A DNA stretch of 64,000 nt from Eledone cirrhosa (GCA_964016885.1 OZ024743.1:352160001-352224000), one strand, 5' to 3'; numbered from the stretch's first letter, positions 1,646 to 56,018 are shown. The notes: a model not told the origin generated them from the sequence alone. Made by a program: numbers and translations.

Positions 1646-3262
1646 GCCGAGTACTGACTTTAGAAAGTACATTGAAAAATCTTGGAAGAGATACCTTGAC
1701 GACTGTTTCATCATCTGGACAGAATCTCTAGATACTCTGGATGAGTTCAATATCCTCCTGAATAACCTAGACTCATCTCTCCAATTCACAAAAGAGATGA
1801 GTAGGACCAAATTACCATTCCTAGATATAATGATAATCAAAAACGACACCACCATTACCACGGATATATATTATAAACACACAGACACCCATCAATATCT
1901 GAATTTTATGTCGTGCCATCCACCTCATACAAAACGCAACATCCCATACTGCCTAGCCAGAAGAATTTGTACCATTGTAGAAGATACGAATACCAAGTAC
2001 AAACGCCTAACAGAACTAAGAGAATTTTTGCTCAAACAAAAATACCCATCTCTACTTATAGAAAATGGCATACAGCGGGCTATAAAAATACCTATACAAC
2101 AACTTAGAACAACCCAAGGAAGAAGAAACCAAGAACTGGTCATACCATTTATAATGACACACAACCCATGTCACCAGAATATATTCAACACTGCCAAAGC
2201 AAACCTACCGATCATTGCTCAAAGTAATGAATTAAAAGGCTTAATCACAGATCGATCTTTGACTCTTAGTAAAAGACAGAGAAAAAATTTGAAGCAATGA
2301 TAATCGATGCGGCACATGTCAATCCAAACAGGCCGGTCAATATATGAAAACAAAAACTGGAAAAATATTCCCAAATGCAATTATGAACTGCAAAAGCAGA
2401 AATCTGCATTAAATGCCCGAATTGTGAAGAACTATATGTCGGTCAAACTGGAAATGCACTATCGGAACGTGCACGGGTACACCGTCAACAAATCAGAGAC
2501 CCAAATGTCCGTCAGATACCCCTAAGCGGCCACCTGGCAACATGTGGTCAGGGAATATTTATAATATTCCCATTCTACAAATTACACAGCCCAAGTGAAA
2601 TCAAGAGAAAAATCAAAGAAAATAATTTTATTGATAAATTCAAACCCAAGCTAAATGAACAATAATAACGCCTAGGGATATTATTTCTACTACCACTATG
2701 ACCACGACCACTAACAACAACCACAACAACAATAATAATAATAATAAAAGTGATGTTGATGGTGATGATTAATAGAAAATGCTATTTTCATCATTTCAAA
2801 AAGCAAAACAATTGATACGTTGGGTATGACTATTGGTCGTTAGCATGCTCAACCAGCCGTGACGCTTAAACCAATCAGCTGTAGTAATTCAGTGAAACTA
2901 CACACTGATTGGTCGAAATACAGTTTACAGGGCTTTGCATTCCGGGGCCACTTTTCTCTGTATAAAATGTATAAAAGGTAGTAAATTTACCCATCTCATT
3001 ACAGTTGAAAATTGCAAAATCGACTGTCACCACATATCATGAACCTGAAGATTGCGAAAGCATGAAAGTACTTGTTCAATTAACACTTAGAATTTAATAT
3101 TCTATCATACTATTTCATTATAATACCATATTATATTATATATATTTTAAAGGATTGTAAATAAAACGAGTAAATCAGACAAAGTTGGAATTCCTCTTAT
3201 TAATATAATCTTCTATACACAATCATACACACCCGTGTATATTTACCTATCTATATCTATAT
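1646..3262 (+). mobile_element. 5'-truncated Penelope-like retroelement (RT C-terminus, GIY-YIG remnant, 3' pLTR)
   Basis: ORF 1644-2300 has RYLDDCFIIW, LPFLDIMI and YYKHTDTHQYLNFMSCHP, which are PLE RT/thumb motifs. Frameshifted sequence at ~2420-2480 reads YVGQTGNALSERARVHRQ (GIY-YIG-like). The 3' end carries an HHR. Confidence 0.88.
3040..3078 (+). ncRNA. Minimal type I hammerhead ribozyme in Penelope pLTR
   Basis: TGAAC-CTGAAGA-T TGC GAAA GCA T-GAAA-GTAC-TT-GTTCA: perfect stem I, GAAA-capped stem II and palindromic stem III. Confidence 0.85.
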
Positions 3263-3980
3263 ATATATATAGAGAGATTTATATATATGCATACATACAC
3301 ACAAGCACACACACACACACACATTTGCAACTCTGCAGCACGTTTATTCTTATATTTACACATATTTTTTCTCCCGCTATGACCCGTCTATTTCGTTCTT
3401 ACTGCTTCCTCTTTCTCTGTTCTTTACCCTCTCTAACAGTTACTCTCTCTGTTAGCCTCTTCCTCACCCTTCACTCACTCACTCTCTGTTACTACCTCTC
3501 CTCCTCCTCCTTCTTCCCGTTTGACCTGTGCGTAATTCTTTTCTTTCGCACGCTTGGTCAGGCTGGTTGGCATTTTTTCTCTCTCTCGTCTACGATTTCA
3601 CAGAACTTATGTTTACCGAATTCACAGACTAGACCCCTTCTTCCTCCCGTTAGACCTGTGCTAAATTCCTTCCTTGCTCACATTTCAACCAGGTTTGGTG
3701 GTCTTTATTCTCTCTCGTTCACGATTTCACAGAACTTATATTCATGGAAATTTTTGGACTTGACTCGCTCTTCCTCACTTTTCGTTGCTTCACCATCTTT
3801 GTTTGTTTACACTCTCGCTGTTCCCTTTATTTACATGTCCCAACGACTTTCTTTTGCTGTTGTTCGCACCAACCGGAGGTATATGGTCTTTAAAGTGAAG
3901 AAATACCGATGATGGTTGGAAGATCACTGATGAAGGGCCACTTTATTCATATATATATATATGTGTGTGTGTGTGTGTTC

Positions 3981-5676
3981 CACATTGCAAGGCAGTGTGT
4001 CAATGCAAATCAGGATGTTGTTGGAGATAAATGTGTCCGGGATGATGCCGGTGTACTTAGTGTCACAAATGATCAGAAAAAGGAGGCCTGGAAATGTCAT
4101 TATGAGAGACTGATGAATGTGGAGAACGAATGGGAGAGAGAGAAATTACCCTTAGTAGATCCAACAGAGGGACCAGCTATTGAGATTGACGAATATAGGG
4201 TTCAAGAGGCGATTAAGGAAATGAAAAATGGTAAGGCTGCTGGACCATCGGGAATAGTTGCTGAGATGCTGAAGGCATCAGGGGACGTAGGCACTAAACT
4301 GGTTGCACACATCATCAATCAGGCTATATATGGTGTTGTCATACCCAAGGACTGGTGCAGCAGTATTCTCATAAATTGCTACAAAGGTAAAGGGGATGCT
4401 CGGGAGAGGAGCAATTATAGGGGTATAAAACTGATGGATCAGGTTATGAAAGTGGCAGAAAGGATATTAGCACAACTAATTAGAGAAAGGGTCAAACTAG
4501 ATGAGATGCAGTTTGGTTTTGTGCGTGGGAAGAGTACAACAGATGCCCTCTTCTTGGTGAGACAATTGCAAAAGAGGTTCTTAGAGAAAAATAAGCCACT
4601 ATACTTAGCCTTTGTTGACCTAGAGAAGGCCTTTGATAGGGTAGCCCGATCTGTCATCTGGTGGTCCCTAAGGAAGCTAGGTGTTGAGGAATGGCTTGTG
4701 AGGACAGTGCAAACTTTGTACAGAGGTACTCTCAGTAAAGTCAGGGTAGGAATGGAGTTTAATGAGGAATTCCAGATACAAGTATGAGTACATCAAGGTT
4801 CGGTCCTCAGCCCGCTCTTGTTCATTATAGTCCTCCAAGCCATAACAGAGGAGTTTAAGACTGGCTGTCCATGGGAACTTCTCTATGCTGACGATCTGGT
4901 TCTTATAGCAGAATCAGTAGAGGAGCTAGAGAATAAATTCTGACTATGGAAACAGGAGTTGGAAGCAAGAGGACTGAGAGTGAACCTAGCTAAGACAAAA
5001 GTGATGATGAGTAGAAAAGAAGACAAAACTCTGATTCCGTCAGGGAAATGGCCATGTTCGATATGCAGAAAAGGAACTGGCATAAATTCTATAAAATGCA
5101 CACAATGCAGATCCTGGGTACACAAGAGATGTAGCGGGATAGCAGGCAAACTAACAGGTAGGGAGAAATATGTATGCAGTAGATGTACAGGGAAATTAGA
5201 CACTAGAAGTCGCATTGATAGACACATTTTTCAAATGCAGGAGGGCGCTATAGAAGTGGTGGATAGCTTCCGGGACCTAGGAGATCAGATTAGCATGGGA
5301 GGAAGGTGTTCCGAGGCCATAGTATCAAGAATAAGGACGGGTTGGAAGAAGTTTAGGGAGCAGCTTCCTCTGCTGACGAAGAAGTGGTTCTCCCTGCGTA
5401 CGAAAGGCCGGTTGTATGATGACTGTGTGAGGAGCGTGATGCTGCATGGTAGTGAGACACGGGCAGCAACTGCAGAGGATATGCGACGGCTGGAGAGAAA
5501 TGAAGCAAGCATGCTCCATTGGATGTGCAGTGTAAATGTGCGTGAATGACCCAGCATAAATGTGTTGAGAGAGAAACTGTGGTCTGATAGGGATAGAATG
5601 TAGTGTACAGGAGAGGAGACTGAGGTGGTATGGACATGTGATGCGCATGGAGAATGACCGATGGGTGAAGAAGTGC
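3981..5676 (+). mobile_element. RTE-clade LINE fragment (RT plus Cys-rich insert), disrupted by stop codons
   Basis: Motifs KAAGPSGI, NYRGIKL, QFGF, AFVDLEKAFDRV, LYADDLVL, CSICRKG...CRSWVHKRCSG and [10 protein letters not shown], with internal stops. Confidence 0.9.
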
Positions 5677-6127
5677 GTGTGTGTGTGTGTATATATATAT
5701 GTGTGTGTGTATATATATATGTATATATATATATATATACATATATATATACATATATGTATATATATATATATATATATATATATATATACACATATAT
5801 ATGTATATATATATACACATATATATATATATATATGTACATATATATATATATATACACACATATATATATATGTACATATATATATATATATATATAC
5901 ACACATATATATATATATATGTAAATATATATATGTATATATATATTTACATATATATATATATATAGTACATATATATATATATATATATATGTACATA
6001 TATATATATATATATATATATATATATATATATATATATATATATATATATATATATATATATATATATATGTATATAATACATATATATATATATATAT
6101 ATATATATATATATATATATATATATA
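5677..6127. repeat. (TA)n/(TACA) compound microsatellite
   Basis: Read directly from the sequence. Confidence 0.95.
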
Positions 6128-6176
6128 GCAACCAGTAAGACCCCGACGGCTGAGCTCAAGCCGTTTCGACGGCTAA

Positions 6177-55041: not shown

Positions 55042-55086
55042 AACGATGTACTAGTTTCAAGCTTGTTAGCTATCATCAGCACCGTT
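55042..55086 (-). ncRNA. Minimal type I hammerhead ribozyme
   Basis: Minus strand reads AACGGTG-CTGATGA-T AGCT AACA AGCT T-GAAA-CTAG-TA-CATCGTT. Confidence 0.9.
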
Positions 55087-55507
55087 TACCCATCTGCCAG
55101 ATAGTTGAACGTTCGAAAGTATATACTTTCCTTATGAAAATTAACGGCTGAGCAGCCTAATTTGCATATTGAGTGAGTTAAATCGGTCAGGCATACCGAA
55201 AACGATAAATTGAAACAAAATGAAAACGAAATTTCATTTCTCACTCTTAGTATGGCACTTACTTAAATGTAAGTATGCATGTATACGTACATACATATAT
55301 GTATACAGACGTACAGTAGCATGCACATATATATATATATATACATATATATATACATATGCATACAGGTACACATACATATATGCACGTATCAGTTTAG
55401 CGGCGCTAACGTCGCTTTGTTCGTTTGTAAACAAACTGAACAGCCTGAATTTATGCCATACGGTGTTAAGGCAACCACGTCACCTTTTTGTTCAACACTG
55501 ACACAGG

Positions 55508-55552
55508 AACGATGTACTAGTTTCAAGCTTGTTAGCTATCATCAGCACCGTT
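55508..55552 (-). ncRNA. Minimal type I hammerhead ribozyme
   Basis: Identical to 55042-55086. Confidence 0.9.
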
Positions 55553-55973
55553 TACCCATCTGCCAGATAGTTGAACGTTCGAAAGTATATACTTTCCTTA
55601 TGAAAATTAACGGCTGAGCAGCCTAATTTGCATATTGAGTGAGTTAAATCGGTCAGGCATACCGAAAACGATAAATTGAAACAAAATGAAAACGAAATTT
55701 CATTTCTCACTCTTAGTATGGCACTTACTTAAATGTAAGTATGCATGTATACGTACATACATATATGTATACAGACGTACAGTAGCATGCACATATATAT
55801 ATATATATACATATATATATACATATGCATACAGGTACACATACATATATGCACGTATCAGTTTAGCGGCGCTAACGTCGCTTTGTTCGTTTGTAAACAA
55901 ACTGAACAGCCTGAATTTATGCCATACGGTGTTAAGGCAACCACGTCACCTTTTTGTTCAACACTGACACAGG

Positions 55974-56018
55974 AACGATGTACTAGTTTCAAGCTTGTTA
56001 GCTATCATCAGCACCGTT
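55974..56018 (-). ncRNA. Minimal type I hammerhead ribozyme
   Basis: Identical to 55042-55086. Confidence 0.9.

Follow-up and report, generated by a model that had tools for sequence, protein, structure and literature searches.

Predicted hammerhead ribozymes with self-complementary stem III in Penelope-like elements and retrozyme-like arrays of Eledone cirrhosa

Described hammerheads of Penelope-like elements and retrozymes

Minimal hammerheads with a palindromic stem III were reportedly treated by Lunse et al. Ribozymes in Penelope-like elements, palindromic stem III and cleavage as dimers are already published: PMC4209133 (reviewed in PMC6765202) described such hammerheads in these elements together with the dimer model. 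The motifs considered here, from a repeat-rich 64,000-nt stretch of Eledone cirrhosa DNA (the window), resemble those in their type I form, palindromic stem III, apparent location in pLTRs, mostly solo copies and suggested dimer model, as well as in opposite-strand pairs 100-700 bp apart and several variable families per genome; they differ in that G10.1-C11.1 is absent from all five families (U.U, C.A or A-U instead) and in a stem II of up to 115 nt. The Hydra clade (PMC8557442) shares with this locus a CxCX5C linker, CxxC and CxH motifs, no CCHH, a (TA)n target, 5' truncation with an inverted copy and a 3' hammerhead, and the U.U closing pair and A or U at H17 seen here are common in its table S2. 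The published and related Hydra motifs mostly have a stem III of 9-10 nt (42/49), always C15.2 (49/49) and a stem II of 10-25 nt, whereas here stem III is 8 nt, stem II 30-115 nt, and U15.2 occurs in two families. The Hydra-1_oBim motif (PMC8557442) is unlike all six families of the window.

Of 78 related metagenome loci, 56 carry hammerheads (72 matches, shuffle mean 2.5); in nine, the ORF is flanked by a hammerhead at either end, the two lying 2.4-2.8 kb apart. In these relatives, the closing pair is U.U in 19/49 and H17 is A in 37/49, while the C.C or C.U mismatch found here at stem II pair 4 occurs in none of 55. The 3' UTR is also longer here: one ribozyme follows its ORF by about 495 nt, and another would follow at about 1,000 nt. 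In 40 of the 42 relatives compared the distance is shorter, at 62-286 nt, which counts against the interpretation given below. Viral contigs yielded no match to a Hydra protein profile, and the exact CUAG motif had no match in metagenome contigs.

Work on non-LTR retrozymes (PMC7229834; bioRxiv 10.64898/2026.07.22.740005) describes non-coding tandem units of low GC content, each with one type I hammerhead and forming a self-paired circle, to which the two arrays described below are alike; their 420- and 466-nt units exceed the 170-400 nt of PMC7229834 and lie within the preprint's 51-972 bp. Our two families with a 6-nt stem III resemble axolotl HHR_Amex1 (one base pair plus a palindromic tetraloop), with a U.U pair closing stem II as in Amex2. 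An invertebrate-type host is combined here with an amphibian-type weak stem III, unlike the retrozymes presented there; two base pairs plus a tetraloop are given as typical of invertebrate hammerheads (PMC7229834). As far as these texts go, the link between retrozymes and Penelope enzymes rests on co-occurrence and sequence likeness.

A census of intact and damaged motifs

We scanned the window for motifs with a stem I of at least 5 bp, CUGANGA, a stem II of at least 2 bp and at most 160 nt, GAAA, a UH site and 4-12 nt between A15.1 and U16.1, palindromy being no criterion. This returned 21 exact-core motifs of type I, with CUGANGA and GAAA cores, a UH site, three stems and an open stem I. In all 21, stem III is fully self-complementary, and it takes the form of five palindromes, none of which matches another; five independent palindromes would arise by chance with a probability of about 4e-6. 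Dinucleotide shuffling, done 200 times each on the whole window, in 500-nt blocks and in 200-nt blocks, gave means of 0.08-0.12 motifs (maximum 2) and at most 0.01 palindromic matches, and the reversed window gave none under the same descriptor. Seven further motifs have damaged cores: six with one change (shuffle mean 0.56), namely G12A (25908+ and 53121+), A9U (42397-) and G8A in a sixth family with the 9-nt stem III ACCACUGGU (25074-, 51912+ and 52289-), and one with two (6258+). Four more weak two-change matches (two sites, each duplicated; shuffle mean 0.28) were dropped as probably due to chance, and other CUGANGA sites, such as 21097-, 22192+, 25440- and 31624-, failed the structure test.

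A sequence-only reading of this DNA had counted 23 intact and 4 broken motifs, mostly with palindromic stem III. The motifs are real, but the counts become 21 and 7; relaxed scans (minimal motifs with stem I of at least 3 bp; U3-A8 cores) added no motif in the window, so its two extra intact motifs were not recovered. The ten coordinates that it gave (3040, 7539, 24479, 25681, 26356, 26515, 32920, 33115, 38677 and 56018) are outer stem I ends of type I hammerheads, all four bases occur at core position 7, as it stated, and the stem III sequences do differ between families while all being self-complementary, UAUGUA by G-U pairs. The shuffled controls that it had proposed left the excess standing, at about 0.1 against 21.

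Overall, these are very probably genuine type I hammerhead motifs deposited by retrotransposition. Chance matches within AT-rich repetitive DNA would fit the blank Rfam search at gathering threshold (no hammerhead in the window) and the weak stems of the AT-rich families, but the probability of this explanation is negligible given the shuffle counts and the presence of compensatory changes. Four two-sided changes were read between copies, from few sequences and with no formal statistic: stem II pair 2 is A-U or G-C in CGAUCG and likewise in UAUGUA, stem I pair 5 is C-G or U-A in CGAUCG, and stem I pair 3 is U.G or G.U between the arrays. Chance is further opposed by 84 viral-contig loci chosen by a looser core-plus-palindrome pattern, none of which has hammerhead structure. 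Below the gathering threshold, Rfam gave weak HH9 matches (18.5 bits, E 0.26) on the three motifs of the 466-bp array; for window positions 1-41900, no hammerhead was among the best 150 of 154 rows by E-value, and microRNA matches by E-value were rejected as microsatellite and hairpin noise.

Table 1. Coordinates of predicted elements, ribozymes and duplications in the window
Feature	Position	Strand	Remarks
Neptune-like Penelope ORF, 5'-truncated, broken	1656..2662	+	RT end, thumb, GIY-YIG with CCHH
GUAC-family type I hammerhead	3040..3078	+	about 385 nt after Neptune-like ORF
Broken GUAC-family hammerhead, two core changes	6253..6291	+	separate 5'-truncated copy
UAUGUA-family hammerhead, 30-nt stem II	7539..7603	-	ends in (TA)n
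Hydra-clade Penelope ORF fragment	8243..8485	+	
Tandem duplication	17354..64000	+	17354-35921 repeated from 44249 to window end, 0.51% diverged
Hydra-clade Penelope ORF, broken	22585..23993	+	duplicate at about 49530-50870
CGAUCG-family hammerhead, 99-nt stem II	24479..24616	+	duplicate 51358..51495 +
Broken sixth-family hammerhead (G8A)	25021..25081	-	copies 51905-51965 +, 52236-52296 -
Head-to-head inverted insertion in (TA)n	25561..26112		duplicate 52774-53325
UAUGUA pair of this insertion	25681-25746; 25900-25965	-; +	intact; broken
UAUGUA pair, duplicate	52894-52959; 53113-53178	-; +	intact; broken
Head-to-head inverted insertion, CGAUCG, 115-nt stem II	26289..26728		duplicate 53466-53905
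CGAUCG hammerheads of this insertion	26356-26501; 26515-26662	-; +	
CGAUCG hammerheads, duplicate	53533-53678; 53692-53839	-; +	
Empty (TA)n site in first duplicate	27459..27597		matches filled site 54678-56559
Head-to-head inverted insertion, UGCGCA	32781..33230		hammerheads 32920-32990 -, 33115-33185 +
UGCGCA hammerhead, 36-nt stem II	38677..38747	-	end of inverted 3' UTR copy, adjacent Hydra element
Hydra-clade Penelope ORF, 5'-truncated, 569 aa open	39221..40930	+	RT with YRDDGL
420-bp retrozyme-like array	41761..44247		one + unit, five - units
420-bp array, + unit hammerhead	41806-41848	+	
420-bp array, - unit hammerheads	42361-42403; 42781-42823, 43200-43242, 43620-43662, 44040-44082	-	first broken
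466-bp retrozyme-like array, 3.3 units	54743..56457	-	in (TA)n
466-bp array hammerheads	55042-55086, 55508-55552, 55974-56018	-	

Penelope lineages, retrozyme-like arrays and their density

Most hammerheads are 3' ends of 5'-truncated Penelope-like elements, and the remainder lie within the two arrays (Table 1). Judged from sequence, four families would represent the terminal repeats (pLTRs) at the 3' ends of such elements. CGAUCG is tied by adjacency to a predicted Hydra-clade element, the hammerhead at 24479 following the ORF stop by about 495 nt and preceding (TA)n by 64 nt; UGCGCA would belong to another through the inverted 3' UTR copy, in which 39073-39238 mirrors 41598-41762; and UAUGUA probably belongs to a third, the hammerhead at 7539-7603 being directed away from the Hydra-clade fragment on the opposite strand. 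GUAC probably belongs to the Neptune-like element, and CUAG is assigned to a non-coding retrozyme. The hammerhead at 3040 has stem III AGUACU, a U.U pair closing stem II and U at H17, and the copy at 6253-6291 bears a short 5' inversion at 6177-6256. The sixth family's 9-nt stem III is the usual Hydra type.

The ORF at 39221 has the Hydra set of motifs (compared with section 11 of PMC8557442), namely a CxCX5C linker, CxxC plus CxH, no CCHH and a GIY-YIG-like end, with the sequences CNCPVKNKC, CNLCLCEK and NRRTDLFSLCFH; (TA)n targets and inverted 5'-truncated copies, also marks of that clade, recur in the window. The window ORFs are 5'-truncated, and the N-terminal motifs RW[KR] and DKT are found in 2/5 and 3/5 homologs. 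Neptune-clade elements are marked by a CX2-5CxxC linker and a CCHH endonuclease; in the ORF at 1656-2662, CCHH is present and the linker is damaged, while homologs have PF00078 and PF01541 together with a complete CX4CxxC linker. Three Penelope ORF pieces matched no Pfam family, and no element in the window has a pLTR-ORF-pLTR arrangement. The earlier view that several Penelope lineages and non-autonomous partners are involved agrees with the Hydra-clade ORFs at 39221-40930, 22585-23993 and 8243-8485, the Neptune-like ORF and the arrays. A Naiad origin of the long-stem families, considered because Craig et al. (PMC8557442) list "half-core" motifs, was rejected, the neighbouring ORFs being Hydra-type; none of the five short family motifs matched in that supplement, where line breaks could hide one. 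All ORFs that could be identified in the window are transposon-derived; for an RTE ORF, the 120 matches listed of 460 were at most 61% identical.

Three AT-rich families with stems II of 30-115 nt and 8-nt palindromes are new; they are unlike 49 relatives and missed by Rfam. Because neither Rfam nor descriptors with a short stem II cover them, the number of ribozymes in genomes of this kind may be underestimated.

The CUAG arrays have the marks of retrozymes, with at least two consecutive non-coding units, one type I hammerhead in each and GC below 45-50%, and their unit circles are predicted to be 65-69% self-paired. Over the 30 nt of core, stem II and stem III, the two arrays agree at all positions but N7 (29 of 30; three intact units), against 82-84% elsewhere. 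The 466-bp array, which interrupts (TA)n as a 1.7-kb insertion in just one of the duplicates, has two identical full units and one mismatch among about 1.5 kb of units, starts and ends at partial units and carries an inverted 185-bp piece at its 5' end. Such near-identical units with a 5' inversion would be expected if Penelope enzymes had copied a circular RNA. Alternatively, the arrays could be DNA satellites to which unequal crossover expanded one pLTR at its site (array growth by this route is discussed in bioRxiv 10.64898/2026.07.22.740005) rather than insertions copied from circular RNA. The 420-bp array, whose units differ at 15-27 of 420 positions (3.6-6.4%) and which sits at the tandem-duplication junction with short microhomologies, is what a satellite might look like, and the "empty" allele could have arisen if two (TA)n tracts recombined and lost what lay between them. 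We consider this rather improbable because in-place growth accounts for neither the inversion nor the lack of a monomer at the empty site; the near identity of the 466-bp units, the partial-unit ends and the otherwise unchanged (TA)n site also speak against it. The filled and empty sites show, in a young multimer, what a Penelope-type insertion leaves behind (a (TA)n target, an internal start and a 5' inversion), and they make the 466-bp unit a candidate active RNA. The array as a filled/empty (TA)n pair with a 5' inversion is new, and no such pair was found in the parts of PMC7229834 and the preprint available. An 877-bp difference at 32323 was rejected as a second such pair, since the second duplicate lacks the 32781-33230 insertion through a deletion that leaves the element's end behind.

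The density of hammerheads is inflated because the tandem duplication and the arrays multiply single insertions: four of the 21 intact motifs are owed to the 27-kb duplication, and the other 17 come from 9 insertion loci in about 46 kb. There is an even chance that this density is a local peculiarity, a (TA)n-rich Penelope sink doubled by duplication or by a haplotype artefact, with an ordinary genome-wide number of thousands to tens of thousands. The small number of insertions behind 21 motifs, the (TA)n targeting of Hydra elements (PMC8557442) and the transposon origin of the identifiable ORFs fit such a sink; against it, every one of the five families is present at no fewer than two independent window loci, with 75-95% identity, which suggests high copy numbers. 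That the genome holds very many hammerheads, as the sequence-only reading supposed, is plausible.

Self-complementary stem III and possible cleavage as dimers

The palindromes bear directly on whether these ribozymes would cleave in pairs. The UAUGUA, UGCGCA and CGAUCG families have an 8-nt stem III able to form 2 bp plus a tetraloop; GUAC and CUAG have a 6-nt stem III that allows one base pair and a palindromic tetraloop. Closing stem III into a hairpin is computed to cost +2.4 to +6.0 kcal/mol, and pairing it with a second copy to gain -2.2 to -10.5; this is the short self-complementary stem, unstable as a hairpin, that is expected of dimer cleavers. The sequences support selection for a self-complementary stem III, an idea that is already published (PMC4209133; PMC6765202). 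In RNAs of two array units, folding as a double hammerhead is favoured over two single ones by 11-15 kcal/mol. Against the dimer reading, in the predicted minimum-energy folds the core bases pair elsewhere, and the double hammerhead lies 2-4.5 kcal/mol above those folds with a stem III pairing probability of at most 2%. The predicted cleavage sites are UA or UU, not UC. In hammerheads, UC cleaves faster than UA or UU. A search of sequencing runs with a window stretch listed 13 runs, none of them RNA, and has no bearing on expression.

Dimer dependence, which the sequence-only reading had proposed for several Penelope lineages and their non-autonomous partners, fits the 6-nt families best, and on these models it is likely there; for the 8-nt families it was overstated and is somewhat doubtful. 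These could instead cleave as monomers or with a protein, in which case the palindrome would merely follow from a short hairpin, and the long stem II would supply stability or a protein-binding site. For CGAUCG, closed and open monomers are equally stable (-32.4 versus -32.2 kcal/mol), and the 8-nt families can form 2 bp plus a tetraloop; coral and mussel retrozymes cleaved as single copies in the tests of PMC7229834, and a Poseidon hammerhead is protein-assisted: it is inactive without protein, dispensable for in vitro insertion and shows no cleavage-site read ends (PMC11167929). However, a hairpin needs no self-complementary loop, yet the loops of all three 8-nt families are self-complementary, and the self-duplexes of UGCGCA (-10.5) and CGAUCG (-10.0) far exceed the hairpins (+4.7 and +2.4 kcal/mol), so that we regard monomer cleavage as the less probable course for these families. 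The 2026 preprint found that of nine retrozyme dimers from Xenopus only one cleaved, a result that tells against the dimer route.

The arrangement of copies also bears on dimer cleavage. Only 7 of the 21 intact motifs, all in the arrays, have a same-strand partner within 500 nt, which is new; the rest stand alone or head-to-head. For four of these, a related partner lies 2.0-2.3 kb away, the remaining motifs have none within 5 kb, and the inverted pairs fold into hairpins that are 90-99% paired. The dimer route could run as follows. An active element would lie in tandem, as established elsewhere, and its transcript would therefore carry two like ribozymes, whose palindromes could pair, as computed, into one helix serving as stem III for both cores. 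Double cleavage would then free a unit RNA able to be circularised, and Penelope RT and GIY-YIG nuclease might copy it into (TA)n from an internal start, in many cases with an inverted piece joined to the 5' end; for this last step the basis is the filled/empty pair, with the enzyme a presumption. Most copies here would be dead products of that step, solo or head-to-head 3' ends with no close cis partner.

A broader combination of readings is unlikely: that there are roughly 200 hammerhead insertions per Mb genome-wide, a large share of them a host-specific long-stem-II Hydra variant missed by Rfam and standard descriptors; that the 466-bp insert preserves a rolling-circle copy that a Penelope enzyme made of a retrozyme circle; and that the five palindromes are family-specific pairing codes. 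By comparison, the axolotl's 126,247 motifs in about 28 Gb amount to roughly 4 per Mb, far below such a density. Cross-duplexes among the five palindromes are no better than -1.8 kcal/mol; with self-duplexes strong and cross-duplexes weak, each lineage would therefore license only its own tandem RNA, and the five palindromes are a ready-made set for asking whether dimer cleavage is family-specific.

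Palindromic hammerheads and their number

A descriptor scan of both strands of the window for type I hammerheads, in which stem II could reach 160 nt and no palindrome was demanded, gave 21 motifs with an exact core, and in all 21 the stretch from A15.1 to U16.1 is fully self-complementary. Named by their stem III palindromes, the families comprise one (GUAC), three (UAUGUA), three (UGCGCA), six (CGAUCG), and eight (CUAG) motifs. The palindromic stem III described in the sequence-only reading is thus borne out, and the coordinates of that reading correspond to the stem I outer ends of hammerheads; its 23 intact motifs were not recovered with relaxed or U3-A8 descriptors, and its four broken motifs become seven when core changes are permitted (six with one change, one with two; four further two-change matches were discarded as weak). 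Three of the broken motifs form a sixth family, with G8A and stem III ACCACUGGU. In shuffled windows, named beforehand as a possible refutation, the mean was 0.08-0.12 descriptor matches, nearly never palindromic (three schemes, 200 runs each). The window motifs are real and of a known kind; Rfam at gathering score gave no hammerhead match in the window.

The high density claimed for these motifs holds against about 0.1 in shuffles, but the count is inflated by duplication. A self-comparison of the window reveals a tandem duplication (89 mismatches in 17,597 aligned columns) of which four intact motifs are mere copies, and the other 17 represent nine insertions: four solo, three head-to-head inverted pairs, and two arrays. 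Two more insertions carry broken motifs alone. Since the non-redundant sequence is about 46 kb, there is approximately one insertion per 5 kb within the window. Every family occurs at at least two independent loci in the window, with 75-95% identity. Other repeats are included in the table; a CUGAAGA site adjoining one of them, a 40-bp tandem repeat, fails the structure test for a hammerhead.

Features of the window (window-relative coordinates)
Feature	Coordinates	Remarks
Duplicates	17354-35921; 44249-64000	
Solo hammerheads	3045, 7595, 24489, 38739	
Head-to-head inverted pairs	25561-26112, 26289-26728, 32781-33230	
420-bp array	41761-44250	
466-bp array	54743-56457	empty counterpart 27459-27597
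Broken relatives of the 39221 ORF	22585-23993, 8243-8485, 11965-12713	last on minus strand, Hydra-like with large internal deletion
Possibly decayed hammerhead	~11690-11750	downstream of 11965-12713 ORF; AUGCAU palindrome; seen by eye, failed scans
Perfect 150-bp palindrome	38382-38531	adjoins (TA)n; without hammerhead
Inverted G8A-family copy	51675-52440	extra copy in second duplicate giving a hairpin around microsatellites; absent from first duplicate
~202-bp tandem repeat	1-1650	GC-rich (58%)
40-bp tandem repeat	31670-32102; duplicate 60631-61063	~11 copies
MITE-like element	19736-20707; duplicate 46624-47583	221-bp inverted repeats, 99% identity, flanking 530-bp AT-rich core
Short interspersed element, many copies	16928-17115, 19016-19183, 26791-26933, 33550-33878, 41306-41493	~170-190 bp; presumably resembles octopus SINEs
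Other transposon remains	3894-5549, 8475-11180, 15305-16093, 30669-31184, 34599-37983	include RT with PHD finger, second non-LTR RT, RNase H with integrase zinc domain, endonuclease-RT element with C2H2 fingers, and what we take to be a possible hAT end

Associated Penelope elements

The GUAC motif is located some 385 nt 3' of a 5'-truncated ORF. This ORF encodes a GIY-YIG domain with CCHH, and its homologs carry a CX4CxxC linker; it is therefore Neptune-like. In the tandem repeat directly upstream of it, neither the hammerhead scan nor Rfam found a match.

The 569-aa ORF at 39221-40930 has RT motifs. It also lacks CCHH, bears a CxCX5C linker, and has CxxC and CxH flanking conserved E and N, all of them Hydra-clade marks according to the available text of PMC8557442. 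Between the stop at 23993, in a broken relative, and the CGAUCG motif at 24489 there is about 495 nt of uninterrupted UTR, and (TA)n begins 64 nt beyond the motif. At 38739, a UGCGCA motif terminates an inverted 3' UTR copy derived from the 39221 element (39073-39238 mirrors 41598-41762); because the 420-bp array cuts the forward copy at 41762, it is through the inverted copy that we infer that the UGCGCA family belongs to this element. The UAUGUA motif at 7595, oriented away from the Hydra fragment at 8243, is more weakly linked to that fragment. Head-to-head pairs seated within (TA)n correspond to the inverted insertions with 5' truncation described in accessible parts of PMC8557442, and the 150-bp palindrome is probably another inverted truncated Penelope-type end. 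The genome is that of an animal and AT-rich, and named homologs of the window's Penelope proteins are mostly bivalve.

Among 78 Hydra-type loci from a profile search of metagenomes (from the best 80 of 456 stretches), 56 carry a hammerhead (72 matches; shuffle mean 2.5), and nine have one on both sides of the ORF, a form permitting cis dimers; the window holds no such element. Of the 49 unique sense motifs from these best 80 of 456 stretches, 42 have a stem III of 9-10 nt, all 49 have C at position 15.2, and 19 have U.U closing stem II; stem II measures 10-25 nt under a 40-nt limit, and a limit of 160 nt added four longer matches, none palindromic. The Hydra motif table in the available text of PMC8557442 resembles this pattern. 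The window's three AT-rich families depart from it: their palindromes are perfect and 8 nt long, two of the three have U15.2, and stem II spans 30-115 nt. At pair 4 of stem II they have a C.C or C.U mismatch, which is found in 0 of 55 relatives and was probably inherited within one host lineage. Two metagenome loci each have a pair of like hammerheads antisense to a Hydra ORF: at 2675 and 2956 (minus strand, 281 nt apart) in L010, where a retrozyme dimer may neighbor a Penelope element, and at 3082 and 5517 (minus strand) in L033.

Proposed cleavage as dimers

The sequence-only reading proposed dimer-dependent cleavage. The computed energy of stem III is better for a self-duplex (-2.2 to -10.5 kcal/mol) than for a hairpin (+2.4 to +6.0), and no cross-family duplex of the five palindromes is better than -1.8. 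For two-unit array RNAs, the double hammerhead is predicted to be 11-15 kcal/mol better than two single ones and 2-4.5 kcal/mol above a core-burying fold. A like partner on the same strand lies within 500 nt of only 7 of the 21 motifs, and the proposal would apply to the window only in part. The inverted pairs are computed to fold into hairpins 90-99% paired. The literature, as far as the available texts go, is mixed: minimal motifs cleave weakly as dimers (PMC4209133), axolotl motifs gain strongly from dimers and coral and mussel motifs cleave efficiently as single copies (PMC7229834), Poseidon hammerhead cleavage is protein-assisted and dispensable (PMC11167929), and one of nine Xenopus dimers is active (bioRxiv 10.64898/2026.07.22.740005).

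Retrozyme-like arrays

Array units of 420 and 466 nt each contain one CUAG motif and no ORF, and as circles have 65-69% of bases paired in predicted folds. A 30-nt ribozyme core region agrees at 29 of 30 positions between the arrays, compared with 82-84% in the rest. Of the two duplicates, only the second contains the 466-bp array, as an insertion of 1,743 bp; the first has bare (TA)n at this site. The insert comprises 3.3 units, among which a single mismatch occurs; its 5' end bears an inverted piece of 185 bp, and it terminates at internal unit positions, not at the cleavage site. A Poseidon enzyme is shown to initiate internally at AT-rich targets in the available text of PMC11167929. Our reading is that a Penelope enzyme recently retrotransposed a circular or multimeric RNA into this site. 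Alternatively, the copied RNA may have been the uncut transcript of a uniform, young array, and the empty site may reflect loss from the first duplicate through recombination between (TA)n tracts.

Searches for hammerhead ribozymes in octopus and retrozymes in cephalopods gave only PMC8557442 (seen in part) as relevant, subscription literature being mostly outside their reach; for retrozyme insertion sites, nothing relevant was among the matches listed, and the available text of PMC13282606 does not mention ribozymes. New here are the long-stem Hydra variant and the filled/empty retrozyme site, which justify a genome-wide scan; the preprint's species and family supplements may bear on this novelty.

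The 420-bp array, with 15-27 differences per unit pair and a tail-to-tail inversion, is older than the 466-bp array. It spans the duplication junction, where short microhomologies connect it to a Hydra 3' UTR on one side and to the beginning of the second duplicate on the other. Although the units predate the duplication, the rearrangement may have brought the whole array in as one copied block.
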